Notes: generated by a model from the letters alone, not told the origin. A DNA stretch of 64,000 bases from Thermodesulfobacteriota bacterium (GCA_021604765.1 BQJP01000003.1:14081-78080); one strand, 5' to 3'; counted from the stretch's first letter, positions 5,912-59,361 are shown. Made by a program: numbers and translations.

Positions 5912-5920
5912 GAAAGTTCT

Positions 5921-14363: not shown

Positions 14364-14391
14364 AGTCTTTTAACTTAACATATCATGAATA

Positions 14392-26908: not shown

Positions 26909-28651
26909 TTATCTCTCTTCTAAGTCACTCAAGTATCTATGAACACTGTTTATCGCCATGCCGCCCTCTCCTACTGCTGAAGTAACTCTTTTTACAGAGT
27001 TGGCTCGTACATCTCCAACAGCAAATATGCCCGGCACGCTTGTTTCAAGCATCATTGGAGGCCTGGTTTCTAAAGGCCAGTTTTTATTATTTACAACATC
27101 ACTCCCTGTGCACACAAAGCCGTTCTCATCCATTCCAACTTCCGTTTCCTTAAGCCACCCGGTGTTTGGTACAGCGCCAATCATAAGAAACACATACTGC
27201 ACATCAAGCTCTCTGGTCTCTCCGCTCTCTCTGTTCTTCCAAACAACCTGTTTTAATCTGTTATCGCCCCTAAGCTCAATAATCTCTGTGCGGGTATGCA
27301 AAGTTATAAAACCAGAAGAATTTATCCTCTCTATCAAATAATCAGACATGCTCGCGGCCAGGCCTCCGCTTCTGACGAGTATGTGTACATGGCTTGCGTA
27401 TTTAGACAAAAACACTGCCGCTTGGCCCGCTGAATTGCCCCCGCCAACGATAATTACTTCCTCATCTTCACAGAGGCTCGCCTCCATTGCTGTGGCTGCA
27501 TAGTAAAGCCCCGCGTTCTCAAAATTCTTTTCTTCTTCAAGTCCGAGATTTCTATAACGAGCGCCCGACGCGATTACTACCGCTCTTGACGTTATCGTTT
27601 CTCCGCTTTCAATATCGAGGGTGAACTGATTGCTGTTTGATGTGATTTTTTCAACTGCTCTGGGCAAGGCTATTTTGGTGCCGAATTTTTGAGCCTGTAT
27701 TTGCGCTCTGCCCGCAAGTGCTTGTCCTGATATCCCTGTCGGAAAACCCAGGTAATTTTCAATTTTTGAGCTTGTGCCCGCCTGCCCGCCTGGGGCTTCT
27801 GTTTCGAGGACTATGGTTCTGAGCCCTTCAGAAGCCGCGTTTAGAGCTGCGGAGAGACCTCCTGGGCCTGCCCCAACCACAGCAACATCGTATGGATATT
27901 GTTGGTCAATCTCCTCAAACAATCCCAGATGCTCAGCGACTTCAAGTGTCGTTGGTTTTTTGAGTACTATTTTTTCGTTATACAATAGTACAGCTGGAAG
28001 GTCATCTCCAGCTACTGTGCAAGTGTTAAGAATTCTTTTGCATTCTTCGCTTTCAAGGTCACTAAGCAATATGACCGGATATCCGTTACGCCTTAAAAAG
28101 CGCTCAATCCTTATGGTTTCTCTCGAATCCCGTGACCCTATAAGAGTTACCGACCCCTGCTCGTGCGAGATTAACCCTACGCGGCGCAAGATAAATGCGC
28201 GCATCACTATTTCACCAATATCAGGCTCTGCTGTTATCAGTTTTCTGAAATTTATCCGGTTAACACGAACCACGTCTCCTTCTTCTCCCATCCTTCCTCC
28301 CACAAGGATCTTCCTGTCGTTGAAGAGATCTACTTCTCCCGTAAATTGTTTCTCTGAGTGAACTGTAAGTACTTTTATACCTTCCTGACGATGTTCATAA
28401 ATCTCAATATTGCCACTAAGAACCACAAAAAAATCTACGGTTTTCTCTCCCCTCTCAAACACTACCGTTCCTTGGTCGAGCTTCTCGGTCACTCCGAAGA
28501 ATTTAACCCGTTCAATTTGTTCATCGCTCAAAGTTGGAAAAGTCTGACTCAACCGGGCATACGGGTCACTTGGGTCAAGTGTATTGCTGTCTGGAATAAG
28601 GTCTTTTGTCACTAAACTGCTCCTTAATTTTATATAAAGAAAGTTTAGCAT
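26909..28651 (-). CDS. Cyclic-nucleotide-binding-domain protein fused to a thioredoxin-reductase-like FAD/NAD(P) flavoprotein that lacks the redox-active CxxC
   Basis: N-terminal cNMP-binding beta-roll (FFGVTEKLDQGTVVFERGEKTVDFFVVLSGNIEIY, FTGEVDLF). The C-terminal TrxR fold has two dinucleotide motifs (VAVVGAGPGG, VIIVGGGNSAG). The position aligned to TrxB's CATC reads AATAMEASLC, so both active-site Cys are absent. Confidence 0.8.
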   Translation of the reverse strand: MLNFLYIKLRSSLVTKDLIPDSNTLDPSDPYARLSQTFPTLSDEQIERVKFFGVTEKLDQGTVVFERGEKTVDFFVVLSGNIEIYEHRQEGIKVLTVHSEKQFTGEVDLFNDRKILVGGRMGEEGDVVRVNRINFRKLITAEPDIGEIVMRAFILRRVGLISHEQGSVTLIGSRDSRETIRIERFLRRNGYPVILLSDLESEECKRILNTCTVAGDDLPAVLLYNEKIVLKKPTTLEVAEHLGLFEEIDQQYPYDVAVVGAGPGGLSAALNAASEGLRTIVLETEAPGGQAGTSSKIENYLGFPTGISGQALAGRAQIQAQKFGTKIALPRAVEKITSNSNQFTLDIESGETITSRAVVIASGARYRNLGLEEEKNFENAGLYYAATAMEASLCEDEEVIIVGGGNSAGQAAVFLSKYASHVHILVRSGGLAASMSDYLIERINSSGFITLHTRTEIIELRGDNRLKQVVWKNRESGETRELDVQYVFLMIGAVPNTGWLKETEVGMDENGFVCTGSDVVNNKNWPLETRPPMMLETSVPGIFAVGDVRANSVKRVTSAVGEGGMAINSVHRYLSDLEER

Positions 28652-28809: not shown

Positions 28810-29520
28810 ATGAGCGATACCACTACAAAAGATATTAAGGATTACAACTACTGCAATTTCAAAGCAGAATACTACAATTTTTCTGAATTTCAGGGACCAA
28901 AGCCAGGAGAAAAAGCTCTTGATTTCGATGCATTCGGTCTGGATGGAGAGAAAGTAAAACTATCAGATTATTTTGGCACTTGGTTGGTTCTTGAAACAGG
29001 TAGTTTTTCGTGTCCGATGTATGTAGGGAATATCCAAAAGATGAATCAGGTAGCTAAGGAATTTCCGGATGTCCGGTTCCTGGTTCTATATATTAGAGAA
29101 GCTCATCCTGGCTCAAATGTTCCCCTAATCAAATCAATTGAGGAAAAATTACATCACGCGAATAGATTGCCTGGTGAAGAGAATGAGCAAAGAACAATTA
29201 TTGTAGATACGATTGACGGGAATGCGCATAAACTCTATGGTTCTTATCCGGACGCCGTTTATATTATAAACCCTGAAGGAACTGTTGTTTTCAGAAGCGA
29301 CTGGACAATAGCTTCCGAGGTTGAAAAAGTGCTTTCACAAGGCAGAGATGAAATACACAAGCGGGACCATTTCGAGCCGGGCGCGCCATCTATCCCATTG
29401 GCATTCAGGGTCTTAAAACGAGCGGGACTCAATTCGCTTTGGGATTTTGCCTTAGGCCTCCCGAAACTGATGACTATGCACAAGGATGCTAATAAAGCCT
29501 ACGGCAAGCAAGTCAAGTAG
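28810..29520 (+). CDS. Thioredoxin-fold (redoxin / deiodinase-like) protein
   Basis: The ETGSFSCPMY motif in a thioredoxin-fold context resembles the peroxiredoxin/deiodinase active-site region. Divergent from the TrxR-like gene. Confidence 0.5.
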   Translation: MSDTTTKDIKDYNYCNFKAEYYNFSEFQGPKPGEKALDFDAFGLDGEKVKLSDYFGTWLVLETGSFSCPMYVGNIQKMNQVAKEFPDVRFLVLYIREAHPGSNVPLIKSIEEKLHHANRLPGEENEQRTIIVDTIDGNAHKLYGSYPDAVYIINPEGTVVFRSDWTIASEVEKVLSQGRDEIHKRDHFEPGAPSIPLAFRVLKRAGLNSLWDFALGLPKLMTMHKDANKAYGKQVK

Positions 29521-30396: not shown

Positions 30397-31071
30397 TCAT
30401 ATAATCACATACAACTCTTTCGGTCCATGAACCCCTAGAGTTAAATTCAGTTCGATGTCAGCAGTACGGCTTGGTCCTGTGATGAATGTCATACAGCTTG
30501 TTATGTCTTCCCCTTCTCCAAGTTTGCTTTTTAAAATTACAAAAAGATCACGAATATTTCTAATAAGATTTTCAGGCCGTACAATTGCCAGGTGAATTGG
30601 TGGCAACAATGAAACACTTCTTGGCTGGCTCTTGTTTGTTAGAAGCACTAAAGTCCCCGTATCTGCAATGGCATAATTAACTTCTGTGATTCCAATTTCA
30701 GAAGTTGCAATTCTGTTTTTATTTTTAGCTGTGATTAATTTCAATCCTGCATCTTTAAGTTCATTCTTAATATTTAATTCTTTTAAAAATTTAGACTCCC
30801 AAATCGAAAAAGATTTTAATTCTTTTTCTTTGATCAGATTAAAGAGGGAATCTTTTATATTTATTCCATTCTTGGCTTCTATTACAGTTGTGTTTACATT
30901 ATTAAGCTCAGTTATAAATTGAGTTTTCAAATCGCTCTGCAGTTCATTTATTAACTTTTCAATCTCCTGAGCTTCACTCACAAAGTTCCTCTCTTCTAAA
31001 GTTTCTTCTGAGCTTGCACCTTTTAGCCCTTTTCTTATTGTATGTAAAATTTCTTCTCTTGAGTTACTCAT
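30397..31071 (-). CDS. lutC: Lactate-utilisation protein C (LUD domain)
   Basis: LUD-domain protein immediately downstream of lutA-lutB; 224 aa. Confidence 0.75.
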   Translation of the reverse strand: MSNSREEILHTIRKGLKGASSEETLEERNFVSEAQEIEKLINELQSDLKTQFITELNNVNTTVIEAKNGINIKDSLFNLIKEKELKSFSIWESKFLKELNIKNELKDAGLKLITAKNKNRIATSEIGITEVNYAIADTGTLVLLTNKSQPRSVSLLPPIHLAIVRPENLIRNIRDLFVILKSKLGEGEDITSCMTFITGPSRTADIELNLTLGVHGPKELYVII

Positions 31072-31098
31072 TGTGTCCTCAAATTTGGGATAGGCACC

Positions 31099-32535
31099 CT
31101 ACCCCATTTGCCCTCTTCTTTCTTTCCATCTATCCCTAAATGTTCTCTTTGCTACAGATGGGAAATCTCTCTGATCGGTCCATCTTGAAAACGGGTATGG
31201 CAGTGATTTTAATTTTCCATTACTCTCTTTCCACGGCGTTTGTAAATAGTACAATAGCTTATTAGTAATTTTATAGATCGAATTATTCAGGACTGTGAAT
31301 CGCCAAAATTTGATTCCTAATTTTTCTATAATATCTTTCGTATTCTTTACGCTAAGCTTTCTTGATTTAACAATTCGTTTTCTGAGTGTTAGAAGCACCT
31401 TTGGGAAATCAATTTTCACTGGACACACATCGTGACAGGCTCCACAAAGTGATGAGGCGAACGGCAGCTCAGCAGCTTTATCTATGCCCATTAACTGTGG
31501 GGTTATTATTGCCCCAATTGGCCCGGAGTAAACCGAGCCATATGAATGGCCGCCAACATGCCTGTAAACCGGGCAATTATTTAGACAGGCGCCACATCTG
31601 ATGCAATAAAGAGATTCTCTTGTTTCCTCTGATGCCAAAACGCCAGAGCGTCCATTGTCCAAAAGCACCAAGTGGAATTCTTCGGGGCCTTCTATGTCAC
31701 TAGGCTTCTTTGGCCCTGTAATAAATGAAACATATGTAGAAGACTTCTGACCCGTTGCGCTCCTTGCAAGAATAGTTAAAAACATTGATAAGTCTTCATA
31801 TCTTGGAATAAGTTTCTCTATACCTACAAGTGCCACGTGTATTTTGGGGACAGTAGTTGTAAGACGTGCATTTCCTTCATTTTCAACGACTACTATTGTT
31901 CCTGTTTCCGCAACAGCAAAGTTTGCTCCTGAGACTCCCATATCAGCATTTAAGAACTCACTCCTTAATTTCTCTCTGGCTACTTTTGTGAGTTCCTCTG
32001 GATTTTCATAATGTGGTATACCTAATTTCTCTGAAAACAGTTTTGATATATCATCTTTAGTTTTATGAATAGCTGGAGCTATTATATGAGAAGGATGCTC
32101 ACCAGCTAATTGAATAATATATTCACCCAGATCAGTCTCAACTACTTTTATTCCTGCACTTTCGAAACTACTGTTAAGATCTATCTCTTCAGTAGCCATG
32201 GATTTACTTTTTACTACTGATTTAACGTTTCTTTCATTTGCAATGTTTACTATTATTTGAGAAGCTTCATCAGCGTCTTTTGCCCAATGAACCCTACCGC
32301 CAGATTTTATTACATTTTCCTCAAGCAGGGTGAGATATTTATCCAGATTTTCAATCGTATTCTTCTTTATTTCTCTAACATTGGATCTTAACTCTTCCCA
32401 ACCGGGTACTTCACTGCTGGCTTTATTTCTTGCTGAACGGAAACGATCGGTAACATTCACCAGTGCTTTTTGTAGTGGTTTGTTCTGAATTGCTTTGTCT
32501 GAGTCTTTTTCAAATCTAACTTCTTCAAATCCCAT
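31099..32535 (-). CDS. lutB: Lactate-utilisation protein B (iron-sulfur cluster-binding, DUF162/LUD plus 4Fe-4S)
   Basis: CIRCGACLNNCPVY...CGACHDVCPV ferredoxin-type cysteine motifs plus a LUD domain; 478 aa. Confidence 0.85.
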   Translation of the reverse strand: MGFEEVRFEKDSDKAIQNKPLQKALVNVTDRFRSARNKASSEVPGWEELRSNVREIKKNTIENLDKYLTLLEENVIKSGGRVHWAKDADEASQIIVNIANERNVKSVVKSKSMATEEIDLNSSFESAGIKVVETDLGEYIIQLAGEHPSHIIAPAIHKTKDDISKLFSEKLGIPHYENPEELTKVAREKLRSEFLNADMGVSGANFAVAETGTIVVVENEGNARLTTTVPKIHVALVGIEKLIPRYEDLSMFLTILARSATGQKSSTYVSFITGPKKPSDIEGPEEFHLVLLDNGRSGVLASEETRESLYCIRCGACLNNCPVYRHVGGHSYGSVYSGPIGAIITPQLMGIDKAAELPFASSLCGACHDVCPVKIDFPKVLLTLRKRIVKSRKLSVKNTKDIIEKLGIKFWRFTVLNNSIYKITNKLLYYLQTPWKESNGKLKSLPYPFSRWTDQRDFPSVAKRTFRDRWKERRGQMG

Positions 32536-32537
32536 TT

Positions 32538-33314
32538 TTATCCTCTACTTGCTAAAAGCTGAGCTAAATGTATTACCTTTATCGGAATATTTCTTCTGCT
32601 TAAAGCACCACCAATATTCATCAAACAGCCCATATCGGCAGATACAACCGTGTCAGCACCGCTATTAACAATGCAATCTATTTTCTCATCCAACATCGAG
32701 ACTGAAACATTTGGAAATTTAATTGAAAAAGTGCCGCCAAACCCGCAACATGCGTCATGGAGATCCATTTCTTTGAATTTGACCCCTTTTACAGAGTTTA
32801 TTAATTGCCTTGGAGCATCTTTAACTCTAAGTTCTCTGAGCAAATGACAGGAATCGTGATAAGTTATAACGCCATCATATTTTGCCCCAATATCTACAGT
32901 GTTGAGAACTTTTATTAAAAATTCAGAAAACTCATAAGTATTTTCCTTTATACGAGAGACTTTTTTTAATATTTCAGGGGAGTTTTTAAATAAATCTTCA
33001 TAAAACACTTTAACCATTGAAGTGCATGAACCAGATGGACAGATAATATATGTTTCAGTATTTGAATCGTGATTTAGTGTTTTTTCAAAAATGGAGATGA
33101 ACCTTTTAGCTACAACTCTAGCATCATCTTGGTAACCGCTATTAAATGCGGGTTGACCACAGCAAGTTTGTTCTTCGATAAAATCAACTTCAACACCAAG
33201 ATCATCGAGAACTTTTAACATGCTTTCCCCTACTTCAGGGAAAAAAGTGTCTACTAGGCAAGTTATGAATATATATACTTTAATTGGCCGTTTTGTAGCG
33301 TTTTTGTTATTCAT
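32538..33314 (-). CDS. lutA: Lactate-utilisation protein A ((Fe-S)-binding CCG-domain oxidoreductase subunit)
   Basis: Two CCG cysteine-rich domains (CLVDTFFPEV...CCGQP; CHLLRE...CCGFGG); 258 aa. Confidence 0.85.
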   Translation of the reverse strand: MNNKNATKRPIKVYIFITCLVDTFFPEVGESMLKVLDDLGVEVDFIEEQTCCGQPAFNSGYQDDARVVAKRFISIFEKTLNHDSNTETYIICPSGSCTSMVKVFYEDLFKNSPEILKKVSRIKENTYEFSEFLIKVLNTVDIGAKYDGVITYHDSCHLLRELRVKDAPRQLINSVKGVKFKEMDLHDACCGFGGTFSIKFPNVSVSMLDEKIDCIVNSGADTVVSADMGCLMNIGGALSRRNIPIKVIHLAQLLASRG

Positions 33315-37919: not shown

Positions 37920-38264
37920 TCAGTCTTCTTCTCCAATGACCTGCTTTAGTTCATTTAAAAGGGTGCTTGCAATAACCACCCATTTATCCCATTCTTCGTT
38001 GTAATCTTTATTTTGGTCTACAGGCTTTAGCAATTTGAAGCCATAGTTCGTATTTTCTATTTTGAATCCATCGTCTTCACTGAGTTTGTTTTCTAAAATC
38101 TCAACATATCTTTGTAGTAGTTTTAACTTTTCTTTGTCACCTTCTCTATATTCTGCAACAAAAGTTTCTCCTGTTCGAGCTGTGGGCATCTGCATAAAAG
38201 AACTCTGCTCGAAATAAATACCTTTATTAATGAATTCAGCTCTCATTGAGATTAAAACTTCCAT
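37920..38264 (-). CDS. Hypothetical acidic protein (114 aa)
   Basis: ORF with a good RBS (GAGGATAAAATG). No recognisable domain. A tandem repeat sits immediately upstream. Confidence 0.45.
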   Translation of the reverse strand: MEVLISMRAEFINKGIYFEQSSFMQMPTARTGETFVAEYREGDKEKLKLLQRYVEILENKLSEDDGFKIENTNYGFKLLKPVDQNKDYNEEWDKWVVIASTLLNELKQVIGEED

Positions 38265-38387: not shown

Positions 38388-39137
38388 ATGATAATTAATA
38401 GTTTGAATAGGCAGGAGGAAAGCAAAGTGCGTTTTAAAGATAGGGTTGCAGTAATAACTGGCGGAACGGGTGGCTTAGGCAAACAAGTAATCTCTGTATT
38501 CTTAAGTGAAGGAACTTCTGTATATACTACATATATAGACCGAAGCCAACTCGCAGTTTCCTTAGATCTTAAAGAAGAATATGGAGAGAAGCTACAGTTC
38601 AGAAAAGCAGATGTGACAAAAGCTAGTCATATGTCGAAAATTGTCGAAGGAGCTATCAATAAATTCGGGCGTGTAGATTTTTTAATTAACATAGTTGGTG
38701 GGTTTGCCATGGCTAAACTTGTTGATACTGAAGAAGCTTTATGGAATAAGATGATGAATATGAATCTAAATTCAGTTTTTGTTTCTTCCAAAGCTGTATT
38801 GCCACAAATGATGGAACAAAAGTACGGACGGATAATTAATATTGGTGCCCGACCGGCTTTGACTGGTGTTAAAAATATGTCAGCTTATGGAGCTTCAAAA
38901 GCAGGTGTAATTAATTTAACTCAATCCATGGCTGACGAACTGTCAGACTCAAATATCAATGTAAATGCAATTATTCCAGGAACAATGGACACACCAAGAA
39001 ATAGAAAAGATATGCCAAAGGCTGATTTTAAGAAATGGGTTAAACCTGAAGATATTGCAGAGGTCATAGCCTTCTTATGTTCTAATGAAGGTGATAAAAT
39101 CAGTGGGGCAATTTTGCCTGTTTATGGAAAGACGTAA
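38388..39137 (+). CDS. SDR-family oxidoreductase
   Basis: VITGGTGGLGK Rossmann motif, YGASK dyad. The likely real start is GTG at 38427, preceded by AGGAGG, with a TATAAT hexamer at about 38374. Confidence 0.8.
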   Translation: MIINSLNRQEESKVRFKDRVAVITGGTGGLGKQVISVFLSEGTSVYTTYIDRSQLAVSLDLKEEYGEKLQFRKADVTKASHMSKIVEGAINKFGRVDFLINIVGGFAMAKLVDTEEALWNKMMNMNLNSVFVSSKAVLPQMMEQKYGRIINIGARPALTGVKNMSAYGASKAGVINLTQSMADELSDSNINVNAIIPGTMDTPRNRKDMPKADFKKWVKPEDIAEVIAFLCSNEGDKISGAILPVYGKT

Positions 39138-39140: not shown

Positions 39141-40649
39141 TTATCTATTAACATCAGACCAATCTTTAATTATTGTGTCCAATAAATGCTCTCCAAAATC
39201 CGATGCAGTTTTGATATCGTCTTTTGAGATTTCGACATTATTTAAGTACTGAAGCCTTAGAATATCTGAGTCTGAATACTCTGGAATTACATATCCATAG
39301 AAGAACCCTAGCTCTCTTAATTTAGAAGCTATGTATCCTGTCCCTTTATGATTTAGTGGTAGGTTTGCGTAAATACAATCTATTCTCTGAAGACAAAGCT
39401 GTTTTAAATGGAACCGAAATTCATCTAAAGTGTTATCTCCATATTTATCTATAGTGATAATCCCTTGATTGTGGTCTGACCTAATAGACACATTGAGATG
39501 TCCCTTCCCTTTTTCATTGTATTTTGAATCTTCGTTTTCTAAAATAAATTTTCTCTCATATCCTATTTTGTTATAGATGGTCTCAATTATTTCTTGATAT
39601 GCTTCAGGAAGATAAATTTTTGCATTTTTACTACTAAGTATTGGTGTAAACATAAGAGCTATGGATTGTCGTCTGGGTCTCTCGTTCTCAGATATATTTT
39701 GAAACGAAACAGTCCCCGGGCTATATCCTAAAAGAAACCCGGTTTCAGTAGAGCCTAGCTCAAGGCTTCCTTTTTGGCTATATGGATGAACGGTGACTGC
39801 TTCACCATAAACTCCAATTACTCCATTTGAGGAAGCGTGGTCAGTCATATAAGTTTTCATTTTTGGGAAAACATGATGACCACGATAGCGAGGATCAACG
39901 ACGGCTTCTCCCGATTCGCCAACTTTAGCGCCGGGTTTGCTATAAATTAAGGCTAGATGACCTATAAGCTCATCCTCACTATTATAAGCCCCACATGACG
40001 TCATTAAATCAGAGTGGAGACGGGCCTCAATCTGCTCGGGGTAGTACATAAATTCATTTGCATAACTGTATCCGTAGCATTTATAAACTAACCTTACAAG
40101 CTCATGAACCTTGCTATGATTGAAACTGTCTATTTTAATTTCTGCGTCTGATTGGGCTGCTTCTAGCTTTAGGTGTTCTTCGTGTTCAGAGATATCCATT
40201 TCATCTCTAATATCAGAAGCGGGCAAATTCTTAATTATTTCAGTTTTATTTCCTTGGGTTCCCAGGCAGTAAAAATTAACTTGATCTGCATATTCTTTAG
40301 ATAAGTATGATCTGAACCTTTTATCTTCACCTAGTTCTAGATTCTCATAATCAAAGGGGAGCCCTTTGTCTTCAAGTGATATTACAAAACTATGTAAACG
40401 TTTGAATATGGAAATATCAATTGATTTGCTGGCGTCATTCTGAAACCCATACTTCACTATATTCTTGAATATCTCTACTAATACTTTATCAAGGTTCTTG
40501 GTGTCTTTTTTGCCAATTCCATTGGCGTTAGCCAAATCGCTTACGACATCTATAATAGCGCTCAAGTACTTTTCTTCGGGCAAGATTGTAAGCTTCGCTA
40601 TTTGGACTTCATGAGAATTTTCCTGAAATTTTCCGGAGTTTTTGCTCAT
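39141..40649 (-). CDS. Two-domain protein: N-terminal anti-sigma-factor/serine-kinase-like (HATPase_c-type) domain plus C-terminal GNAT acetyltransferase domain; last gene of the pyruvate dehydrogenase operon
   Basis: The N-terminal roughly 130 aa resemble RsbW/SpoIIAB-type ATP-binding modules (LSAIIDVVSDLANANG...LVEIFKNIVKYGF). The C-terminal region has a GNAT acetyl-CoA-binding signature (VVDPRYRGHHVFPKMKTYM). The probable start is MSKNSG at 40649, 11 nt after the lpdA stop. Confidence 0.55.
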   Translation of the reverse strand: MSKNSGKFQENSHEVQIAKLTILPEEKYLSAIIDVVSDLANANGIGKKDTKNLDKVLVEIFKNIVKYGFQNDASKSIDISIFKRLHSFVISLEDKGLPFDYENLELGEDKRFRSYLSKEYADQVNFYCLGTQGNKTEIIKNLPASDIRDEMDISEHEEHLKLEAAQSDAEIKIDSFNHSKVHELVRLVYKCYGYSYANEFMYYPEQIEARLHSDLMTSCGAYNSEDELIGHLALIYSKPGAKVGESGEAVVDPRYRGHHVFPKMKTYMTDHASSNGVIGVYGEAVTVHPYSQKGSLELGSTETGFLLGYSPGTVSFQNISENERPRRQSIALMFTPILSSKNAKIYLPEAYQEIIETIYNKIGYERKFILENEDSKYNEKGKGHLNVSIRSDHNQGIITIDKYGDNTLDEFRFHLKQLCLQRIDCIYANLPLNHKGTGYIASKLRELGFFYGYVIPEYSDSDILRLQYLNNVEISKDDIKTASDFGEHLLDTIIKDWSDVNR

Positions 40650-40659
40650 ATGTGAAATT

Positions 40660-42090
40660 CTATCTATCTCTTTTGGGTTTGTACATATGGGTGCTGAGTC
40701 CATAGTAAACTTCAGCAGATTCCATTACTGTTTCAGATAATGTCGGATGGGCGTGTATTGTAAGCTCAAGATCAGAAGCCAGAGCTCCCATCTCTATTGC
40801 TAAAACCCCTTCTGCTATTAGCTCACCAGCCCCGGGGCCTACTATTCCCATACCCAGCACTCTATCAGTCTCAGGATCAATTATGAGCTTTGTGACTCCA
40901 TCATTCCTATCTAGAGTTGTAGCACGTCCGGATGCGCCCCATGGGAACCTAGCCACTTTGATATTTATCTTTTTCTCTTTCGCTTCTGTTTCGGTCAGTC
41001 CGCACCAAGCGATTTCAGGATCAGTGAACACTACAGCAGGAATAGCATTGGGTTCAAATGCTACATCTCTGCCCGCTATTACTTCTGCAACAGTTCTCCC
41101 CTCATGTGTGGCTTTGTGAGCTAGCATTGGTTCACCTGCAACGTCACCGATTGCAAAAATATTGCGGTCAGCTGTTCTTCTCTGTGCATCAATTGTTATA
41201 AAACCTTTAGAATCTATCTCTACTTTTGTGTTTTCCAGGCCGAGGTTTTCTGAGTTAGGTTTTCTTCCAACGGATACTAAGACCTTATCAAAATTCAACT
41301 CTTTTTCTTCTGCCCCTTCACCTTCGAAAGTAACCTTAATCCCTTTTTTCGTTTCTTCTATTTCTACAACTTTCGTGTCTAACAGAATTGCCTCATAAAT
41401 TGGTTCAGAGCTTTTTTGGAGAACTCTTACAAGGTCTCTATCGGCTCCTTGCATTAGACCTGAGGTCATTTCTACCACAGATACTTTTGTTCCTAAAGCG
41501 GCGTACACTGTGCCTAGTTCAAGCCCAATGTATCCCCCACCTACAACCAACATTGTTTTTGGGATTCCGGGTAAATCAAGTGCAGAGGTTGAATTTAGCA
41601 GGTGTGGAGAATCATTTGGGAAACCCGGTATCTGAGCCGGACGTGAACCTGTGGCGATTACTGCATGTTCAAATTTAAGTTCTATTACCTCACCGTCAGT
41701 CTTTTTTATCTCTAAAGTTTCAGAATCTACAAATTTAGCCCTACCCTGTATGTAGGTGATTTTTCTTTGCCTGGATAATATTCCGAGACCGCCTACCAGT
41801 TTTTCCACTACATTATTTTTCCAGTCGCGTAATTTGTCCAGGTCTATTTTCGGTTTGCTAAATGTGATTCCTAAATTCTTTAGATGTTCTGCTTCCGAAA
41901 TTACTTTCGCACTGTGGAGTAAAGCCTTTGACGGTATACAACCTCTGTATAGACATACGCCACCGGGATTATCTTCAGGGTCTATAATTGTGACTTCAAG
42001 TCCTAGGTCTGCCGCTAAAAATGCGGCTGGGTAACCACCTGGCCCTGCTCCGATAATTGCTACTTGTGTTTTAGTTTTTAAGTCACTCAT
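40660..42090 (-). CDS. lpdA: Dihydrolipoyl dehydrogenase (E3 of pyruvate dehydrogenase)
   Basis: GAGPGGY FAD motif, redox-active GGVCLYRGCIPSK, C-terminal HAHPTLSE dimerisation motif. Confidence 0.9.
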   Translation of the reverse strand: MSDLKTKTQVAIIGAGPGGYPAAFLAADLGLEVTIIDPEDNPGGVCLYRGCIPSKALLHSAKVISEAEHLKNLGITFSKPKIDLDKLRDWKNNVVEKLVGGLGILSRQRKITYIQGRAKFVDSETLEIKKTDGEVIELKFEHAVIATGSRPAQIPGFPNDSPHLLNSTSALDLPGIPKTMLVVGGGYIGLELGTVYAALGTKVSVVEMTSGLMQGADRDLVRVLQKSSEPIYEAILLDTKVVEIEETKKGIKVTFEGEGAEEKELNFDKVLVSVGRKPNSENLGLENTKVEIDSKGFITIDAQRRTADRNIFAIGDVAGEPMLAHKATHEGRTVAEVIAGRDVAFEPNAIPAVVFTDPEIAWCGLTETEAKEKKINIKVARFPWGASGRATTLDRNDGVTKLIIDPETDRVLGMGIVGPGAGELIAEGVLAIEMGALASDLELTIHAHPTLSETVMESAEVYYGLSTHMYKPKRDR

Positions 42091-42115
42091 TTTACTCTCT
42101 TAATATTTAATTGAC

Positions 42116-43522
42116 TTAGCCTTCTAGTGGTAGTTTGAAAGGTTCTTCGAGCGTTTCTATTATCCAGCGTAAAAATCTTATGGCATCAGCTCCATCTATT
42201 AGCCTGTGATCGTATGAAAGAGATAGAGGGAGCATAAGTCTTGGTAGAAATCCTCCATCTATATAGACGGGTTCAATTACTGAGCGAGAGATGCCAAGTA
42301 TAGCAACTTCAGGGGCGTTTAGCACTGGGGAGAAGTATGTGCCGCCAATTCCGCCTAAATTGCTAATGGTAAAAGTGCCTCCTTGCAACTCATCGACCGA
42401 GATTTTTTTGTTTCTGGCTTTTTCAGACAACTCACTCAACTCGACAGATAACTTTGTAATGTTTTTTTTGTTTGCATTTTTTATTACAGGTACTAGCAGG
42501 CCTCTGTCTGTATCTACGGCTACGCCAATGTTGTAATATTTCTTATATAAAATTTCTCCATTTTCCATATCCACGCTCGCATTGAATTGTGGAAAGACTT
42601 TAAGGGCAGATGCCACTACTTTTAATATGATTGAGGTCATAGTTAGTTTGCCTCCTGCATTGGCTACCTCGGGACCAAAATCTTTTCTGAGTTTCTCAAG
42701 CTCTGTAATGTCAGCTTTGTCATACTGTGTTACATGAGGAGCTTTCCATGCCTCGGTTAAGCGCTCTGCTGTAAGTCTTCGGACCTTGGACATGGGACTA
42801 CGGTTAATATCTCCCCATTTATCAGAGCTATCTTTTCCGCTAGGTTTTTGGGGTTTAATTACGGCGGGTTCTGGAGGTTGTTTTTTGGTCTTAGTTTTAG
42901 GTTTCTTACCGGGACTAAAGTTTCTAATGTCTTCTTCCGATATTCTTCCCCCAGGTCCTGTTCCTTCTACAAGGTTTATATCTACACCAATTTCTCTTGC
43001 TATTCTTCTTATAGTTGGTGAGGCTGGTACTGGGTTTTTGTCTGCGGGTTCAGGGGTATCTAAAACTTCTTTTTCCTCTGAACCTGTTGTTGAATTCTCT
43101 ATAGTTTCTAAATCTACTTCTGCTTCATCAAGTTCTTGATTTGTTGTGTCAGATTTTTCAGGTTCCGGCTCAGGATCTGCATCCATCTCTTCTTCAACTT
43201 CTTTTTCTGCAATTTCCTCTATTACTTCATCTTGTGTTTTAATTTTAGCAACTTTTTTGACTTGAGGGTTTTTACCATTTCCTTTCCCGTCATCTATTGT
43301 TACCAGCAGCTGGCCAACTTTTATAGTATCGCCTTCGCTTACATGCAGCTCTTTGATTACTCCTCCAGAAGGCGCTGGAATTTCAATTGCCGCTTTATCA
43401 GTCTCAATTTCCAGAAGCGCTTGATCTTCGGCTACCTTGTCTCCAACAGATACGAATACACCAATTACATCTCCTGTTTCAATGTCTTCTCCGAGATCGG
43501 GCAGTTTATATTCGATAGTCAT
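42116..43522 (-). CDS. aceF: Dihydrolipoyllysine-residue acetyltransferase (E2 of pyruvate dehydrogenase), single lipoyl domain
   Basis: Lipoyl-lysine motif (EIETDKAAIE); acidic/Pro-rich linkers; peripheral subunit-binding domain; catalytic DHRLIDGA. Confidence 0.9.
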   Translation of the reverse strand: MTIEYKLPDLGEDIETGDVIGVFVSVGDKVAEDQALLEIETDKAAIEIPAPSGGVIKELHVSEGDTIKVGQLLVTIDDGKGNGKNPQVKKVAKIKTQDEVIEEIAEKEVEEEMDADPEPEPEKSDTTNQELDEAEVDLETIENSTTGSEEKEVLDTPEPADKNPVPASPTIRRIAREIGVDINLVEGTGPGGRISEEDIRNFSPGKKPKTKTKKQPPEPAVIKPQKPSGKDSSDKWGDINRSPMSKVRRLTAERLTEAWKAPHVTQYDKADITELEKLRKDFGPEVANAGGKLTMTSIILKVVASALKVFPQFNASVDMENGEILYKKYYNIGVAVDTDRGLLVPVIKNANKKNITKLSVELSELSEKARNKKISVDELQGGTFTISNLGGIGGTYFSPVLNAPEVAILGISRSVIEPVYIDGGFLPRLMLPLSLSYDHRLIDGADAIRFLRWIIETLEEPFKLPLEG

Positions 43523-43603
43523 TTGGTTTTACCCCTTGAGTTTATCTACTACTAATTATAGCTAGTATACTGTGTAACTAAAATTAAATTAAAGTAATCA
43601 AAA

Positions 43604-46282
43604 TTACGAAATCAAAGGATTTACTTTGCTAGGATTTATATTCATGTCCAGTATAGCTTTTTCTACTATTGAAGGGTCGAGCTCTTTCTGCCAGGTTAAC
43701 GATGCAAGTACCGCTAGGGTTATGTATCTCCAGTCTACTTCAAAAAAGTCTCTAAGGGCTTTTCGACTAGCGCTTCTTCCAAAGCCGTCGGTTCCTAACG
43801 AAACAAGGGAGCGTGGGAGCCACTGAGAGATAGAATCGGGAAGGGCCATTACGTAATCTGAAGCGGCAACAAATACCCCTGGAGCATCCTTTACGCACTC
43901 AGTTATATATGGGATTCTTTTTATTTCTGAAGGGTGAAGCATGTTCCAGCGTTCTTTCTCAAGCCCATCTCTATATAGTTCTTTATAGCTAGTGACACTC
44001 CATACATCAGCAGCTATTCCATATTTCTCACCCAAAACTTCTTGCGCTTTTAGTACTTCATTTAGAATCGTGCCACTTCCGAAAAGCTGTGCGTGTAGTT
44101 TTGCTTTTTTATTCTCAGAATCTTTGAATTTATACATACCTTTTAATATCCCTTCTTTTACGCCTTCGGGCATTGGAGGTTGAAGGTAGGTTTCGTTCAT
44201 TACTGTTATGTAGTAGAAGATATCTTCCTGTTCTACATACATTCGGCGGATGCCGTCTTGTATAATTACAGCTATTTCATATGCGAATGCAGGATCATAT
44301 GCTTTAAGATTGGGAACAGGGTATGCAAGCAGGTGACTATGACCGTCTTGATGCTGTAGACCCTCGCCGGCTAATGTTGTTCTTCCCGAAGTTCCGCCAA
44401 CCATAAAACCTTTACACCTCATATCTCCAGCGGCCCAGACAAGATCACCAATTCTCTGAAATCCAAACATAGAATAGTATATAAAGAACGGTAGAGTGTT
44501 AATTCCATGGGTTGCGTAAGCCGTGCCAGCAGCAATAAATGACGACATAGAGCCCGCTTCTGTGATGCCTTCTTCCAGTATTTGGCCATCGACTGCTTCT
44601 TTGTAATAGAGAAGAGTTTCAGCATCTACAGGTTCATATAGTTGTCCTACATGGGAGTAAATTCCTACTTGTCTGAATAGAGCTTCCATTCCAAACGTGC
44701 GAGCTTCATCAGGCACTATCGGAACTATAAGCTTGCCGATATTTTTGTCCTTTAGCATCTTTGCAAGCATTCTAACAAATGCCATAGTTGTAGCGACTTC
44801 TCTTTCTCCCGACCCTTCGTAAAACTCTTCAAAGAGTTTCTCCGGAGGGGCTTTTATCGGATCGCATATCACCTCGCGCTTAGGAAGATAACCGCCGAGT
44901 TCTTTTCGTCTTTCTTTTATATACTTAATTTCCGGGCTGTCATCAGAAGGTTTATAAAAAGGAGCTCTTGATATATCTTCATCTGAAATTGGTATATCGA
45001 AACGTTTCTTAAATAACTTAAGCTCATCTTCGTTAAGTTTTTTCTGCTGGTGTGTAATATTTCTACCTTCCCCTGATTCACCAAGCCCATAGCCTTTTAT
45101 AGTTTTTGCTAGTATTACGGTTGGAGATCCAACGTTTTCAATAGCCGCTTTAAAGGCAGTAAAAATCTTTTCAGGGTCATGTCCCCCTCTTCTAAGTTTT
45201 TGAAGTTCAGTGTCTGATAGGCCTTTTACCATTTCTTGAAGACGTGGGTCTGTTCCAAAGAAATGATCTCTTATATATTCACCTGAAGCCACTGAGTATT
45301 TTTGATAGTCTCCATCCAATGCGTCGGTCATCCTTTTTACCAGGATGCCATCCTTATCTTTTGCAAGTAAGGGATCCCAGTTGCTACCCCATACTACTTT
45401 TATTACATTCCAACCAGCACCTCTGAAAATAGCTTCAAGTTCTTGTATTATCTTTCCGTTTCCTCTGACAGGACCGTCGAGTCTTTGAAGATTGCAGTTA
45501 ACTACAAAAATTAGGTTGTCCAGATGCTCTCTGGACGCAAGCGTTATAGCTCCTAAGGTTTCAGGCTCATCTGTCTCGCCGTCTCCTAAAAAAGCCCATA
45601 CTTTTGCATCAGAGGTTTTTTTTAGACCCCGGTCTTCCAAATACCGGTTAAACCTTGCTTGATAGATAGCCATTATAGGGCTAAGTCCCATAGAGACTGT
45701 AGGGAATTGCCAAAAATCAGGCATCAACCATGGATGAGGGTACGAAGTTAAGCCCCCTTCCGGTTGTAAATCACGTCTAAAGTTTTGTAGGTCTTCTATA
45801 CAAAGTCGTCCTTCGAGAAATGCCCTTGCGTATATTCCCGGAGCCGCATGACCTTGGAAATAAACTATGTCTCCCTCATGGTTCTCATTTCTCCCACGGA
45901 AGAAATGATTAAAAGCAACTTCATATAAAGCTGCAGCTGAAGCAAAGGTGGATATATGGCCACCTATGCCTTCCTCTAACCTGTTAGCTCGAACAACCAT
46001 TGCCATTGCGTTCCAGCGTATTAAGCTTCTAATCTTCCATTCAATTTCCGGGTCACCGGGATACTTGGGCTGTTTGTCGGTAGGTATTGTGTTTATATAC
46101 GGAGTGTTTGCTGTAAAAGGCAGCCTAACTCCTTTTTTCTGCGCATGAATTTGGAGTTTTTTAATTAATTTGGCTGCGCGCTGATCATCGCCATTCTCCA
46201 ATACATAGTCAAGCGATTCAATCCATTCTCTGGTTTCTAGTTCTTCTTCTTTTATATTCTTTTTCTTGGGATTTTTCTTCAT
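43604..46282 (-). CDS. aceE: Pyruvate dehydrogenase E1 component, homodimeric type
   Basis: 892 aa, a single chain of AceE-type length; TPP-binding GDGE...N motif region. Confidence 0.9.
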   Translation of the reverse strand: MKKNPKKKNIKEEELETREWIESLDYVLENGDDQRAAKLIKKLQIHAQKKGVRLPFTANTPYINTIPTDKQPKYPGDPEIEWKIRSLIRWNAMAMVVRANRLEEGIGGHISTFASAAALYEVAFNHFFRGRNENHEGDIVYFQGHAAPGIYARAFLEGRLCIEDLQNFRRDLQPEGGLTSYPHPWLMPDFWQFPTVSMGLSPIMAIYQARFNRYLEDRGLKKTSDAKVWAFLGDGETDEPETLGAITLASREHLDNLIFVVNCNLQRLDGPVRGNGKIIQELEAIFRGAGWNVIKVVWGSNWDPLLAKDKDGILVKRMTDALDGDYQKYSVASGEYIRDHFFGTDPRLQEMVKGLSDTELQKLRRGGHDPEKIFTAFKAAIENVGSPTVILAKTIKGYGLGESGEGRNITHQQKKLNEDELKLFKKRFDIPISDEDISRAPFYKPSDDSPEIKYIKERRKELGGYLPKREVICDPIKAPPEKLFEEFYEGSGEREVATTMAFVRMLAKMLKDKNIGKLIVPIVPDEARTFGMEALFRQVGIYSHVGQLYEPVDAETLLYYKEAVDGQILEEGITEAGSMSSFIAAGTAYATHGINTLPFFIYYSMFGFQRIGDLVWAAGDMRCKGFMVGGTSGRTTLAGEGLQHQDGHSHLLAYPVPNLKAYDPAFAYEIAVIIQDGIRRMYVEQEDIFYYITVMNETYLQPPMPEGVKEGILKGMYKFKDSENKKAKLHAQLFGSGTILNEVLKAQEVLGEKYGIAADVWSVTSYKELYRDGLEKERWNMLHPSEIKRIPYITECVKDAPGVFVAASDYVMALPDSISQWLPRSLVSLGTDGFGRSASRKALRDFFEVDWRYITLAVLASLTWQKELDPSIVEKAILDMNINPSKVNPLIS

Positions 46283-46470: not shown

Positions 46471-47904
46471 ATGGAAAAATTTGACTTAACTGTAATTGGA
46501 TCCGGACCTGGGGGCTACGTTGGAGCAATAAGAGCTGCACAGCTTGGAATGAAGGTCGCTGTGATAGAGAGGGACAAACCCGGGGGTGTTTGTCTAAATT
46601 GGGGATGCATACCATCAAAGTCAATCTTAAAGTGCGCGGAAGTCTATCAATATTTCAATCATTCCGAAGAGTTTGGCATACAACATAAAGGCTTGTCTTA
46701 TGATTTTTCTAAAGTAATTGAGAAGAGCAGAAAGGCTTCTTCAACACTCAATAAAGGGGTTGAGTACTTATTAAAAAAGAACAAGATTACTCTTTTTAAT
46801 GGTGTCGGAACATTAATTACAAATAATAAAGTTGGAGTAACTAGTGAAAATGATCAAATTGAAATAGATACTGGGAAGATAATGATTGCTACAGGATCTG
46901 TTCCTGTAACACTTCCTGGTCTTGAGATAGATGGAAAGCTTGTAATGACAAGTGATGAAGCTATTTTTCATAGAGAGGTTCCGGATTCTGTTGTTGTTAT
47001 TGGAGGGGGGTATATAGGGGCTGAATTTGCTTATGTTTATAACTCTTTTGGAAGTAAAGTTACTATAGTAGAGATGATGGACAACATTATACCTGGCGCT
47101 GATAAAGAAGTGGCTGCAGAGCTCCAAAGGTTATTTAAGAAAAGTGGCATGACAATCCTGACAGGCACAAAATTCAAAGATATCAATAAGAAAAAGAAGA
47201 CAGTTGATGTAATACTTGAAAACGTTTCAAATCAGGCAGAGACCAAAATTACAGCTTCTATGGTGCTCGTAGCTGTTGGGAGAAGGCCTGTCGCCAATGA
47301 TGCGCCCACTTCTCTAAGCTTTTACAAGAAAGGCGGGGATATTGGGCTTAGCGATTTAAGAATAGAACTTGATGAAAGAGGCTTTATCAAGACAGATGAT
47401 GACTATATGACTACCTGCAGCAATGTTTATGCAATTGGGGATATAATTGGCCCCCCACTCTTAGCTCACAAAGCTTCGGAGGAAGGTGTTGCAGCAGTTG
47501 AGATTATGGCAGGTCAAACTAGTAAAGTTCACTATAATAATATTCCCGGATGTGTTTATTGTCAGCCCGAGGTAGCTACTATAGGGTTTACAGAAGAGCA
47601 GGTTCAGGATCATGGATATGACTACAATGTAGGCAAATTTCCTTTCCGAGCTGCTGGTAAAGCTGTTGGTACAGGTGAAACCGACGGATTTGTAAAGATT
47701 CTATCCGATAAAAGAACCGGTGAAATTCTGGGCACTCATATTATTGGCCACGGAGCAACTGAATTAATTGCAGAGTTGGCTGTTGCCAGAACTCTGGAAT
47801 CTACACCTCTTGAGATAGCTATTACTTCTCATGCACATCCTACTCTATCTGAAGCTGTTATGGAGGCTGCTCTAGCGGCAATGGGAAGATCTAGAAATTC
47901 CTGA
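46471..47904 (+). CDS. lpd: Dihydrolipoyl dehydrogenase paralogue (second Lpd)
   Basis: GSGPGGY, GGVCLNWGCIPSK, HAHPTLSE; 477 aa; divergent from aceE. Confidence 0.9.
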   Translation: MEKFDLTVIGSGPGGYVGAIRAAQLGMKVAVIERDKPGGVCLNWGCIPSKSILKCAEVYQYFNHSEEFGIQHKGLSYDFSKVIEKSRKASSTLNKGVEYLLKKNKITLFNGVGTLITNNKVGVTSENDQIEIDTGKIMIATGSVPVTLPGLEIDGKLVMTSDEAIFHREVPDSVVVIGGGYIGAEFAYVYNSFGSKVTIVEMMDNIIPGADKEVAAELQRLFKKSGMTILTGTKFKDINKKKKTVDVILENVSNQAETKITASMVLVAVGRRPVANDAPTSLSFYKKGGDIGLSDLRIELDERGFIKTDDDYMTTCSNVYAIGDIIGPPLLAHKASEEGVAAVEIMAGQTSKVHYNNIPGCVYCQPEVATIGFTEEQVQDHGYDYNVGKFPFRAAGKAVGTGETDGFVKILSDKRTGEILGTHIIGHGATELIAELAVARTLESTPLEIAITSHAHPTLSEAVMEAALAAMGRSRNS

Positions 47905-47931
47905 TGCGCTGATATCGTGGAAACCTGAACT

Positions 47932-48684
47932 ATGAATACACTCAATGTTTATAAAATTGGATTGGTACCCTATAGAGCTGTTCTTGATCTCCAGATGAGA
48001 CTTCTTGAGAAAAGAAAAAATGGTGAGATTAGTGATACACTTCTGTTGCTTGAACACCCCCCTACTTTTACTATAGGTCGAAAAGGAGATAAGGAGCATT
48101 TACTTATAAACGAGAAGTATTTGTCAGATCGTGGAATACATTTTGAAGAAATTAGTAGAGGTGGTGACATCACTTTTCACGGACCAGGTCAGCTGGTTGG
48201 CTATCCAATTATAGATCTAAACGCCAGGGGAAAGGATGTTCATAAATACTTGAGAGGCTTAGAGGAATTTATCGTCTCAGTCCTTGAAGGCTTTGATATT
48301 GAAGCTAACAGAATAGAGGGTTTAACAGGTGTTTGGGTGAACGGGCATAAAATTGCTTCAATAGGAGTTGGAGTAAAAAGATGGATCACATATCATGGTT
48401 TTGCTCTTAACGTTAATACTGATCTGTCCTATTTTGATATGATTGTTCCTTGCGGTATTCCTGATGTAACAATGACTTCTATTGGTGGATGGTTGGAAAG
48501 AAAGGATGAGCTGCCGATGGAAGAGATTGAGGAAGCTGTCATAAAAGAATTTATTAAAACTTTTGAATTTGATAATGCTAAAGTATTAACCACTTTTGAT
48601 AGTCGTATAGAGAATTTATTAGAAAATGATTTGCTCATGAATTTTGAATTAGATGTTGAGAAAGATAAGGATCTTCTCATATAA
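47932..48684 (+). CDS. lipB: Lipoyl(octanoyl) transferase with an about 40-aa C-terminal extension
   Basis: LipB motifs (LLLLEHPPTFTIGRKG, RGGDITFHGPGQLVGYP, catalytic C in PCG). Confidence 0.85.
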   Translation: MNTLNVYKIGLVPYRAVLDLQMRLLEKRKNGEISDTLLLLEHPPTFTIGRKGDKEHLLINEKYLSDRGIHFEEISRGGDITFHGPGQLVGYPIIDLNARGKDVHKYLRGLEEFIVSVLEGFDIEANRIEGLTGVWVNGHKIASIGVGVKRWITYHGFALNVNTDLSYFDMIVPCGIPDVTMTSIGGWLERKDELPMEEIEEAVIKEFIKTFEFDNAKVLTTFDSRIENLLENDLLMNFELDVEKDKDLLI

Positions 48685-48731
48685 AAATCTTAACAATATA
48701 AATTCTTACTTTTTCAAGCTAAACTATTCCT

Positions 48732-49823
48732 ATGTTTCCCCCCAAATTTTTACTAATCACTTTCCTTAGTCTTTTTCTTTTCACTTCTAAAACTATTATG
48801 GCTTCGGTCAATAATCTTACGGTTCCAGAAGGATTTCAAATAGATGAGTATGCAACAGAATTGGGAAGCCCAAGGTTTATGGCGCTTAGTCCTGACAATA
48901 TTCTTTTTGTTACTGTTATCGGGGACGGAACTGTTGTAGCCCTGCCTGATAGAAATATGGATGGTAAGTCAGAAGAAGCGATCACCTTTATTAAGGGGCT
49001 AAAACGTCCTCACGGGATAGCTTTTCATGATGGGTATATATATGTTGGGGAAACTAACCAGATAGTTAGATATAAGTATAATGGCTTTGAAAAGGAACAT
49101 GGAGAGAAAGAGATAATTGTTTCGGATCTTCCAACCAAGGGGCATTTTACAAGGACTGTATCCTTTGGACCTGATGGAAAGATGTACGTTTCAATCGGTT
49201 CTTCCTGTAATGTCTGTATTGAAAAAGATAAACGACGTGCAACTATTATGCGGTTTAATCCAGACGGTACAGGTGGTGAGATCTTTGCAACAGGGCTTAG
49301 AAACTCAGTAGGACTTACATGGAATTCCACAACTAAAGATTTATGGGCTACTGATAATGGTAGAGATTGGTTGGGAGATAATCTGCCTCCCGATGAAGTA
49401 AATATAATCAAAGAAAATAAAGATTATGGCTGGCCCTATTGTTATGGTGATAAAATCCCTGACCCCGAATTTGGTAACCTGGAGCGATGTAAAAATACTA
49501 TTGCCCCAATTGTAGAACTACAAGCCCACTCAGCCCCTTTAGGATTAACATTTTATGAGGGTAAAATGTTCCCTCCAGACTATCAGGATGATCTCTTTGT
49601 GGCTTTTCATGGTTCATGGAATCGCACAATACCAACCGGTTATAAAGTAGTTAGAGTTAAGATGAAAGATGGAGAACCTCAGGGGGTGGAAGATTTTGCT
49701 TCCGGATGGATGACTGTAACAAAGAAGTCTGGAAGGCCTGTTGATGTCTTGGTCGGCAAAAAAGGTGAGCTGTATATATCGGATGACTTAGGTGGAATAA
49801 TTTATAGAATTACATCCCAATAG
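48732..49823 (+). CDS. Secreted PQQ-dependent sugar/sorbosone dehydrogenase (sGDH beta-propeller family)
   Basis: Signal peptide; sGDH-family motifs (HGIAFHDGYIYVGE, GLRNSVGLTWN, DNGRDWLGDNLPPDE). Confidence 0.75.
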   Translation: MFPPKFLLITFLSLFLFTSKTIMASVNNLTVPEGFQIDEYATELGSPRFMALSPDNILFVTVIGDGTVVALPDRNMDGKSEEAITFIKGLKRPHGIAFHDGYIYVGETNQIVRYKYNGFEKEHGEKEIIVSDLPTKGHFTRTVSFGPDGKMYVSIGSSCNVCIEKDKRRATIMRFNPDGTGGEIFATGLRNSVGLTWNSTTKDLWATDNGRDWLGDNLPPDEVNIIKENKDYGWPYCYGDKIPDPEFGNLERCKNTIAPIVELQAHSAPLGLTFYEGKMFPPDYQDDLFVAFHGSWNRTIPTGYKVVRVKMKDGEPQGVEDFASGWMTVTKKSGRPVDVLVGKKGELYISDDLGGIIYRITSQ

Positions 49824-59360: not shown

Positions 59361-59361
59361 C

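Follow-up and report, generated by a model that had tools for sequence, protein, structure and literature searches.

What does a protein that joins a nucleotide-binding fold of the partner-switching type to an acetyltransferase fold do at the end of the operon for the pyruvate dehydrogenase (PDH) complex? This question is raised by a 64,000-nucleotide stretch of DNA from a Thermodesulfobacteriota bacterium (GCA_021604765.1, BQJP01000003.1:14081-78080; referred to here in its entirety as the window), in which aceE, aceF and lpdA are followed by a gene for a protein of 502 amino acids (39141..40649, minus strand), hereafter the target gene and the target protein. Its product comprises a GHKL domain, a GNAT domain and a GNAT-like domain in this order; it is identical to GenBank entry GJM15229.1 from a Thermodesulfobacteriota metagenome-assembled genome (MAG), which is annotated as 'hypothetical protein'. 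Tentatively, and with somewhat less than an even chance of being right, we propose that the target protein is a signal-gated, acetyl-CoA-dependent acyltransferase, probably directed at proteins, that is tied to the acetyl-CoA node of metabolism and possibly exerts feedback on PDH.

Domain architecture of the target protein

An AlphaFold2 model of the full-length target protein was built on 78 homologues (predicted local distance difference test, pLDDT, 85.9; predicted template modelling score, pTM, 0.85), and its pTM value implies that the three domains are predicted to form one compact unit. An initial interpretation made from the DNA without database searches (the sequence-only reading) had described two domains, with a GNAT acetyltransferase at the C terminus. 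The GNAT fold is indeed present, but it occupies the center of the protein and is followed by a third, degenerate domain.

The N-terminal domain (approximately residues 14-165; 40155..40610, minus strand) is a GHKL domain of the RsbW/SpoIIAB type and possesses the Bergerat ATP-binding fold. Pfam HATPase_c_2 (PF13581) matches residues 25-109 with 31.0 bits, above its cut-off of 27.4, and attains 65-78 bits in distant family members; a profile derived from 30 homologues matches RsbW of Bacillus subtilis (6m36; E 2e-6), and the best fold match is SpoIIAB, not pyruvate dehydrogenase kinase (PDK). The profile search that the sequence-only reading had suggested for this region thus bears out the RsbW/SpoIIAB-type module that it had recognized there. 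N63 of the N-box and D94 and G96 of the G1-box are present in the target protein and are conserved in 293, 335 and 359, respectively, of the 361 full-length family members that we compared. The ATP-lid segment (residues 100-114; 40308..40352, minus strand) is modeled with a pLDDT below 50, and alignment with distant members and stand-alone RsbW-like kinases places the GxG of their G2-box motif 'SGLGVMLM' onto R111-F-R113 of the target protein. Only 94/361 members retain this GxG; it is missing throughout the Dadabacteria, Nitrospirota and Rubrobacter branch, the Dadabacteria members inspected being the target protein and its homologues P0001, P0045 and P0073. The invariant residues G130 and G133 belong, according to the alignment, to a later, G3-like glycine motif that is separate from the true G2-box. 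The GxG of the ATP lid is needed for kinase-competent ATP binding, and kinase activity of the target protein is doubtful because this motif reads R-F-R. Hence, of the kinase label given by the sequence-only reading, the GHKL domain stands while the activity is in question; nucleotide binding by this domain is plausible, judging from its sequence motifs.

A domain of this kind could act as a classical anti-sigma factor, sequestering a sigma factor in the manner of RsbW or SpoIIAB, with the GNAT domain as an accessory. The HATPase_c_2 match, weak matches to RsbW equivalog models, and the designation 'anti-sigma regulatory factor' that some homologues bear in databases point in this direction. 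We find such a function scarcely credible. With the RsbW equivalog models NF003144 and TIGR01924 the target protein scores 18.9 bits (cut-off 145) and 15.3 bits (cut-off 155), and neither the window nor the 13 fetched loci for which gene tables and Pfam hits were available contain a called sigma-factor gene. Archaea lack sigma factors, and the family occurs in the archaeon Methanobacterium. Collectively, the low equivalog scores, the missing sigma-factor genes and the archaeal members make the sigma-factor-like partner invoked in the sequence-only reading unlikely.

The central domain (approximately residues 172-340; 39630..40136, minus strand) is of the catalytic GNAT type and displays the complete topology β1-α1-α2-β2-4-α3-β5-α4-β6-7, so that it qualifies as a GNAT domain by its fold. 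Profile matches are less pronounced: Acetyltransf_1 scores 16.3 bits with the full protein and 17.2 bits with a fragment starting at residue 167 (cut-off 20.7), and Acetyltransf_9 scores 16.1-16.9 bits (cut-off 25). Many homologues carry precomputed matches to PF00583. Motif A, the acetyl-CoA pyrophosphate loop, corresponds to V250-V-D-P-R-Y-R-G-H-H-V-F261 (39867..39902, minus strand); against the consensus R/Q-x-x-G-x-G/A the target protein reads R254-Y-R-G257-H-H259, and the position of its His259 is taken by Gly in 224 of the 361 members. Several residues of the domain are nearly invariant in these 361 proteins, namely Y202 (361), Q292 (359), R327 (356) and H288 (354), followed by R256 (353), E245 (335) and G257 (323). 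Protein acetyltransferases are among the fold matches.

The C-terminal domain (residues 343-502; 39144..39623, minus strand) is a degenerate GNAT-like domain with the family-specific motifs R-x-DHNQ, GDxLRLQYLNN and DIKTASDFG. It has no Pfam match even at E≤10 and no PDB sequence match below E=0.05, and its identity came from fold comparison alone. The succession of a catalytic GNAT domain and a second GNAT-like domain is shared with tandem-GNAT enzymes such as the class III lysine acetyltransferases (KATs), Eis and MshD. With regard to domain order, a counterpart is found in the type III bacterial protein acetyltransferases, in which an N-terminal effector-binding domain precedes a C-terminal GNAT domain, as in the cyclic AMP-, NADP- or amino-acid-regulated Pat enzymes (PMC11254643). 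The target protein likewise has its regulatory domain N-terminal to the GNAT domain; it differs in that this domain is of the GHKL/RsbW type, which is not among the effector domains listed for type III enzymes (PMC11254643), and in having a further, degenerate GNAT-like domain after the GNAT domain, as is characteristic of class III.

Might the GHKL domain instead provide the output and, like a bacterial analog of PDK, phosphorylate either a PDH subunit or a STAS partner, with the pair of GNAT domains merely sensing acetyl-CoA? The conserved N-box Asn and G1-box Asp/Gly would be in keeping with this idea, as would the STAS and PP2C genes that adjoin homologues in other genomes (see below). Mitochondrial PDK is likewise a GHKL kinase, and it is stimulated by acetyl-CoA. 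With PDK and its relative BCKDK, the target protein shares a GHKL-superfamily ATP-binding domain associated with the PDH complex, an association that for the target protein is genomic only, and the theme of feedback by the product acetyl-CoA. Despite these parallels, we hold a kinase output to be quite improbable. The GxG of the G2-box is replaced by R-F-R in the target protein and its whole clade, the N-terminal helical domain of PDK is absent (no Pfam match even at E≤10), HATPase_c scores just 16.1 bits against a cut-off of 26.4, and the closest fold is that of SpoIIAB. Furthermore, conservation is stricter for the GNAT residues than for those of the GHKL domain, as is expected of a catalytic domain and not of a sensor, and there are natural forms of 330-365 amino acids whose alignment starts only at about residue 145-185 and which consequently consist of the GNAT and GNAT-like regions without the GHKL region. 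One variant of 1046 amino acids bears two N-terminal FHA domains. The short forms and the FHA form fit with a GNAT core that, to judge from these sequences, may carry swappable signaling inputs.

Genomic linkage and family distribution

The operon begins with aceE (43604..46282, minus strand), which encodes a PDH E1 component of the homodimeric type (TIGR00759, 1418 bits, with the cut-off at 860; matches to PDH_E1_M and Transketolase_N of Pfam). It is followed by aceF (42116..43522, minus strand) for an E2 dihydrolipoyl acetyltransferase that carries one lipoyl domain (Pfam 2-oxoacid_dh, E 2.9e-84; Biotin_lipoyl; E3_binding), by lpdA (40660..42090, minus strand) for the E3 dihydrolipoyl dehydrogenase (TIGR01350, 510 bits against a cut-off of 409), and by the target gene at the operon end. 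The sequence-only reading had correctly seen a gene for about 500 amino acids directly downstream of lpdA on the same strand; the gap that it had given as 11 nucleotides measures 10 (40650..40659, minus strand), counted from the lpdA stop codon (TAG, 40662-40660) to the ATG at 40649. As to a promoter or terminator of the gene's own, named beforehand as a sign against operon membership, a consensus scan revealed no terminator-like site between lpdA and the target gene, and promoter-like sites were not enriched over shuffled sequence (25 vs. 21.9 ± 4.9).

The complete open reading frame (ORF) spans 39141-40703, and an in-frame ATG at 40703 would yield a protein of 520 amino acids. We dropped this start because it overlaps lpdA and because most homologues use the equivalent of the ATG at 40649 instead. 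Several database entries of 520 amino acids for close homologues (P0001, P0003 and P0004 among them) begin farther upstream, at an ATG inside the final part of lpdA; their 18 additional residues probably reflect a wrongly called start and owe their conservation solely to the overlapping lpdA coding sequence.

Proteins related to the target protein form a large, uncharacterized family that has a fixed architecture of about 500 amino acids and comprises bacterial as well as archaeal members. When 1.84 billion representatives of clusters formed at 50% identity were searched exhaustively, 1864 matched at E≤1e-3, of which 498 reached E≤1e-30; nearly all matches are 480-510 amino acids in length and align end to end. 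The bacterial members stem from Dadabacteria, Nitrospirota, Rubrobacteraceae, Cloacimonadota, Chloroflexota, Sumerlaeota, Omnitrophota, Planctomycetota and Rhodopseudomonas, the archaeal ones from the genus Methanobacterium, whose protein is 30% identical to the target protein over 483 residues (E 8e-95). Among the carriers are the cultured microorganisms Methanobacterium ferruginis (WP_286244188) and Rhodopseudomonas palustris (Q07JQ4). The homologues have generic database names ('ATP-binding protein', 'GNAT family N-acetyltransferase', 'anti-sigma regulatory factor'), and our full-text literature searches for the GHKL-GNAT architecture, also in connection with Dadabacteria and PDH, yielded no account of it or of a comparable regulator linked to PDH, in agreement with what the sequence-only reading had stated. 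In two loci of contig_17617 (L005 and L032; approximately 7556-9059 in L005), the homologue is split into an ORF of 166 amino acids with HATPase_c_2 and an overlapping GNAT ORF of 352 amino acids, which reflects either an assembly frameshift error or a genuine two-gene split.

To what extent is the family bound to PDH? We searched 80 species-representative loci by tblastn with the proteins of the window and inspected flanks of up to 10 kb in about 95 loci. In 25 of the 80 species loci, lpdA is located directly upstream of the homologue (aceF instead in locus L011). Across the PDH-linked loci, the identity to the target protein amounts to 42-91%, the intergenic gaps measure about 10-80 nucleotides, and a 25-kb region is collinear; it contains genes for a glucose/sorbosone dehydrogenase (GSDH), a lipB-like protein and a second lpd (lpd2) on one side, and continues with aceE-aceF-lpdA-target, a short-chain dehydrogenase (SDR) gene, an ORF for 114 amino acids, ileS, a HIT gene and lutABC. 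The PDH-linked sequences form a single Dadabacteria clade in a neighbor-joining tree, and the linkage arose once. The neighborhood conservation that the sequence-only reading had proposed to check is hence real, and it is confined to this one clade.

These data permit a sober explanation, in which a general GNAT acyltransferase, active on proteins or small molecules and unrelated to PDH, landed behind lpdA once in an ancestor of the Dadabacteria and was retained by synteny. We consider this unlikely, albeit a contender to be taken seriously. With one clade and collinearity of the whole region from GSDH to lutABC, the linkage may persist by inheritance rather than by function. Moreover, the nearest outgroups (the CSP1-2 Dadabacteria and the Nitrospirota), and L023 within the clade, have no PDH genes in their flanks, several of these contigs being short; the CSP1-2 loci without the PDH operon still keep the convergent SDR gene beside the homologue. 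On the other hand, the spacing of 10-80 nucleotides has been kept over target identities of 42-91%, and in L011, from which lpdA and the SDR gene are missing, the target gene still lies directly 3' of aceF with a 12-nucleotide gap, so that the linkage has survived a rearrangement. This attachment to aceF, together with the tight spacing throughout the clade, mildly favors selection.

A further argument against chance retention comes from other lineages, where three additional, independent juxtapositions with enzymes of acetyl-CoA or acyl-CoA metabolism would be an odd coincidence. For this comparison, flanking ORFs were clustered and the cluster representatives analyzed with Pfam; the adjacency counts were then repeated by tblastn because ORF calling in high-GC loci had produced spurious antisense ORFs (among others, clusters c35, c86 and c297). 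In seven Rubrobacteraceae/Actinomycetota loci, a gene for an acetyl-CoA hydrolase/transferase (PF13336, E 1.8e-57) is positioned directly upstream of the homologue on the same strand, and in three further loci of this group such a gene is found at a distance of ≤2.2 kb. Six Cloacimonadota loci have a gene for an AMP-binding acyl-CoA ligase (PF00501, E 2.5e-67) directly downstream, a class of enzymes that comprises the classical Pat substrates; three further Cloacimonadota loci with a readable downstream neighbor possess some other gene there. An acetyl-CoA hydrolase/transferase gene also directly follows the homologue in a Dehalococcoidales MAG (L079). In all, four lineages have homologues encoded beside acetyl-CoA-node enzymes; the juxtapositions with acetyl-CoA hydrolases/transferases and AMP-forming ligases in other phyla provide independent, if indirect, support for a link to acetyl-CoA. 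The acetyl-CoA-linked regulator envisaged in the sequence-only reading is a reasonable idea, while a family specific for PDH is not what we found, as at least 498 clusters are scattered across many phyla.

The Dehalococcoidales locus is also instructive with respect to signaling genes. Its cluster (L079:4582-12819; MAG sequence CAZXAJ010000018.1) encodes on one strand, in this order, a STAS protein, a thiamine pyrophosphate-dependent enzyme, a 5TM-LYT/SpoIIE PP2C phosphatase, an FAD-linked oxidase, a stand-alone RsbW-like kinase, the homologue and the acetyl-CoA hydrolase/transferase; a gene for a cyclic nucleotide-binding PP2C protein (13985-15172) converges on it. Two Methanobacterium genomes (L094:7734-9923 and L086:7568-9801) carry, next in order after the homologue, genes for a STAS protein, a 5TM-LYT/SpoIIE PP2C and an RsbW-like kinase. 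The PP2C gene of L086 was called as three pieces, which may reflect a frameshift or a pseudogene. Between the Dehalococcoidales bacterium and Methanobacterium, the STAS, PP2C and kinase proteins are 58%, 55% and 41% identical, and the fused GHKL-GNAT proteins 38%; the cassette identities suggest that the STAS/PP2C/RsbW-like cassette has moved between domains of life. In Sumerlaeota, a STAS-containing protein is encoded two genes away from the homologue. Like the acyl-CoA neighbors, the STAS/PP2C/RsbW-like cassettes of Methanobacterium and Dehalococcoidales lend our proposal indirect support.

How common are such partners? A tblastn search with the cassette proteins in 95 loci and the window detected STAS/PP2C genes only in L079, L086 and L094, and a STAS fusion in L087/L088; short, divergent STAS proteins could escape this search. 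Pfam scans of the window covered essentially all ORFs of at least 110 amino acids. Its sole STAS domain is located N-terminally on an MlaE permease (59362-60510) beside an ABC ATPase, the pair spanning 58596-60510 (minus strand); it belongs to a transporter and is not a free RsbV-type protein.

Surroundings of the operon

The SDR gene (38388..39137, plus strand; Pfam adh_short, E 8.8e-50) converges on the target gene, with 3 nucleotides from stop to stop. Between it and ileS lies the ORF for 114 amino acids (37920-38264, minus strand), which has no Pfam match; almost every PDH-linked Dadabacteria locus keeps it, with 40-82% identity. The window also contains a lactate-utilization operon of the lutABC type (30397-33314, minus strand) with CCG, LUD/Fer4_8/LutB_C and LUD domains, some 6 kb away from the target gene; given its synteny with the PDH block in Dadabacteria, the region groups functions for the conversion of lactate to pyruvate and of pyruvate to acetyl-CoA. 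On the other side of the operon, the second lpd gene (46471-47904, plus strand; TIGR01350, 536 bits) and a lipoate-protein ligase A/B-type gene (47932-48684, plus strand; Pfam LplA-B_cat, E 4.5e-51) diverge from aceE. Together with the glucose/sorbosone dehydrogenase gene they occupy 46471-49823 (plus strand) in an order that is kept across Dadabacteria loci, and tblastn comparisons across the loci show the second lpd to be only 33-39% identical to the lpdA of the operon.

Farther away, the window encodes a 580-residue fusion of a cyclic-nucleotide-binding domain with a pyridine nucleotide-disulfide oxidoreductase (26909-28651, minus strand) and an ORF with a match to Pfam T4_deiodinase, iodothyronine deiodinase (28810-29520, plus strand; E 2.4e-12), a family not usually encountered in bacteria. 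At 3537-6742 (minus strand), genes for a diadenylate cyclase (DAC domain), a YbbR-like protein and a phosphoglucosamine-mutase-like protein follow the usual cdaA-cdaR-glmM order. A role in anti-phage defense was dropped, as PADLOC returned no match.

A putative regulator at the acetyl-CoA node

From the domain folds and the gene neighborhoods we infer the following course of events. The GNAT domain would be the catalytic output of the target protein, transferring acetyl groups, and the GHKL domain its regulatory input, which would bind a nucleotide and/or a STAS-type partner and thereby hold or release the GNAT output as a partner-switching kinase does with its own partner. Recruitment of the gene to the 3' end of aceE-aceF-lpdA in one Dadabacteria clade would have led to production of the target protein alongside the complex that generates its co-substrate. 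This co-production would put the protein in a position to act on the acetyl-CoA node, by modification or by sensing, and possibly on PDH itself, in a product-dependent feedback; a direct action on PDH is no more than plausible. The GNAT protein acetyltransferases of bacteria (Pat, AcuA) have AMP-forming acyl-CoA synthetases as their classical substrates. Because of this precedent, and because acetylation of AceE alters PDH activity in Escherichia coli (PMC12536357), an acetyltransferase model is reasonable.

Several observations weigh against this proposal. With regard to the GNAT domain, the Pfam scores of the target protein are sub-threshold, the final residue of motif A is His instead of Gly or Ala, and the fold matches do not distinguish protein substrates from small-molecule substrates. 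With the G2-box GxG lost, signaling by phosphorylation may not operate in the target protein, and the Pfam scans found no gene for a free STAS protein, a PP2C phosphatase or a deacetylase in the 64-kb window. The association with PDH has a single origin within a region that is collinear throughout its clade, and it is missing from the flanks of the CSP1-2, Nitrospirota and L023 homologues. Finally, many homologues (among them those in Sumerlaeota, Omnitrophota, L091 and L093) have neighborhoods without anything related to acyl-CoA, a finding that at the same time speaks for a PDH-unrelated acyltransferase retained by synteny.

A more elaborate form of the acetyltransferase proposal would make the family the enzymatic output of a partner-switching system. 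In it, a STAS protein under the control of a membrane-bound PP2C phosphatase and an RsbW-like kinase would dock on the GHKL domain and switch on or off a protein acetyltransferase whose substrates make or use acetyl-CoA; these would be PDH for the Dadabacteria, CoA-transferases for the Rubrobacteraceae and the Dehalococcoidales, and acyl-CoA ligases for the Cloacimonadota. We give this scheme rather little credence. Similarity to RsbW and SpoIIAB is evident in fold and family, in the retained N- and G1-boxes, and in the STAS, SpoIIE-type PP2C and stand-alone RsbW-like kinase genes that adjoin the Methanobacterium and Dehalococcoidales homologues. In contrast to RsbW and SpoIIAB, which bind a separate sigma factor, the GHKL domain of the target protein is fused to a GNAT domain, falls far below the RsbW equivalog cut-off and has lost the G2-box GxG; neither a free STAS nor a PP2C gene was found in its window, and its family is also archaeal. 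If true, the scheme would represent a prokaryotic counterpart of the control that PDK and pyruvate dehydrogenase phosphatase (PDP) exert over the step from pyruvate to acetyl-CoA, and would couple phospho-signaling to acetylation in Bacteria and Archaea alike.

The effector domains known from bacterial protein acetyltransferases are few in kind. The target protein is a regulated GNAT protein with a new kind of regulatory domain or, seen equally well from the other side, a partner-switching module with an enzymatic output. As it belongs to a large family that spans two domains of life and has cultured members, our proposal is directly testable. To our knowledge, no dedicated covalent regulator is attributed to bacterial PDH complexes beyond allostery, regulation of transcription and non-enzymatic acetylation. 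If the GNAT domain acetylates the enzymes encoded next to it, the family would constitute a new class of regulated acetyltransferases and a partner-switching output that does not involve sigma factors, which would explain the archaeal modules, and it would endow its carriers with a dedicated feedback on the production of acetyl-CoA.

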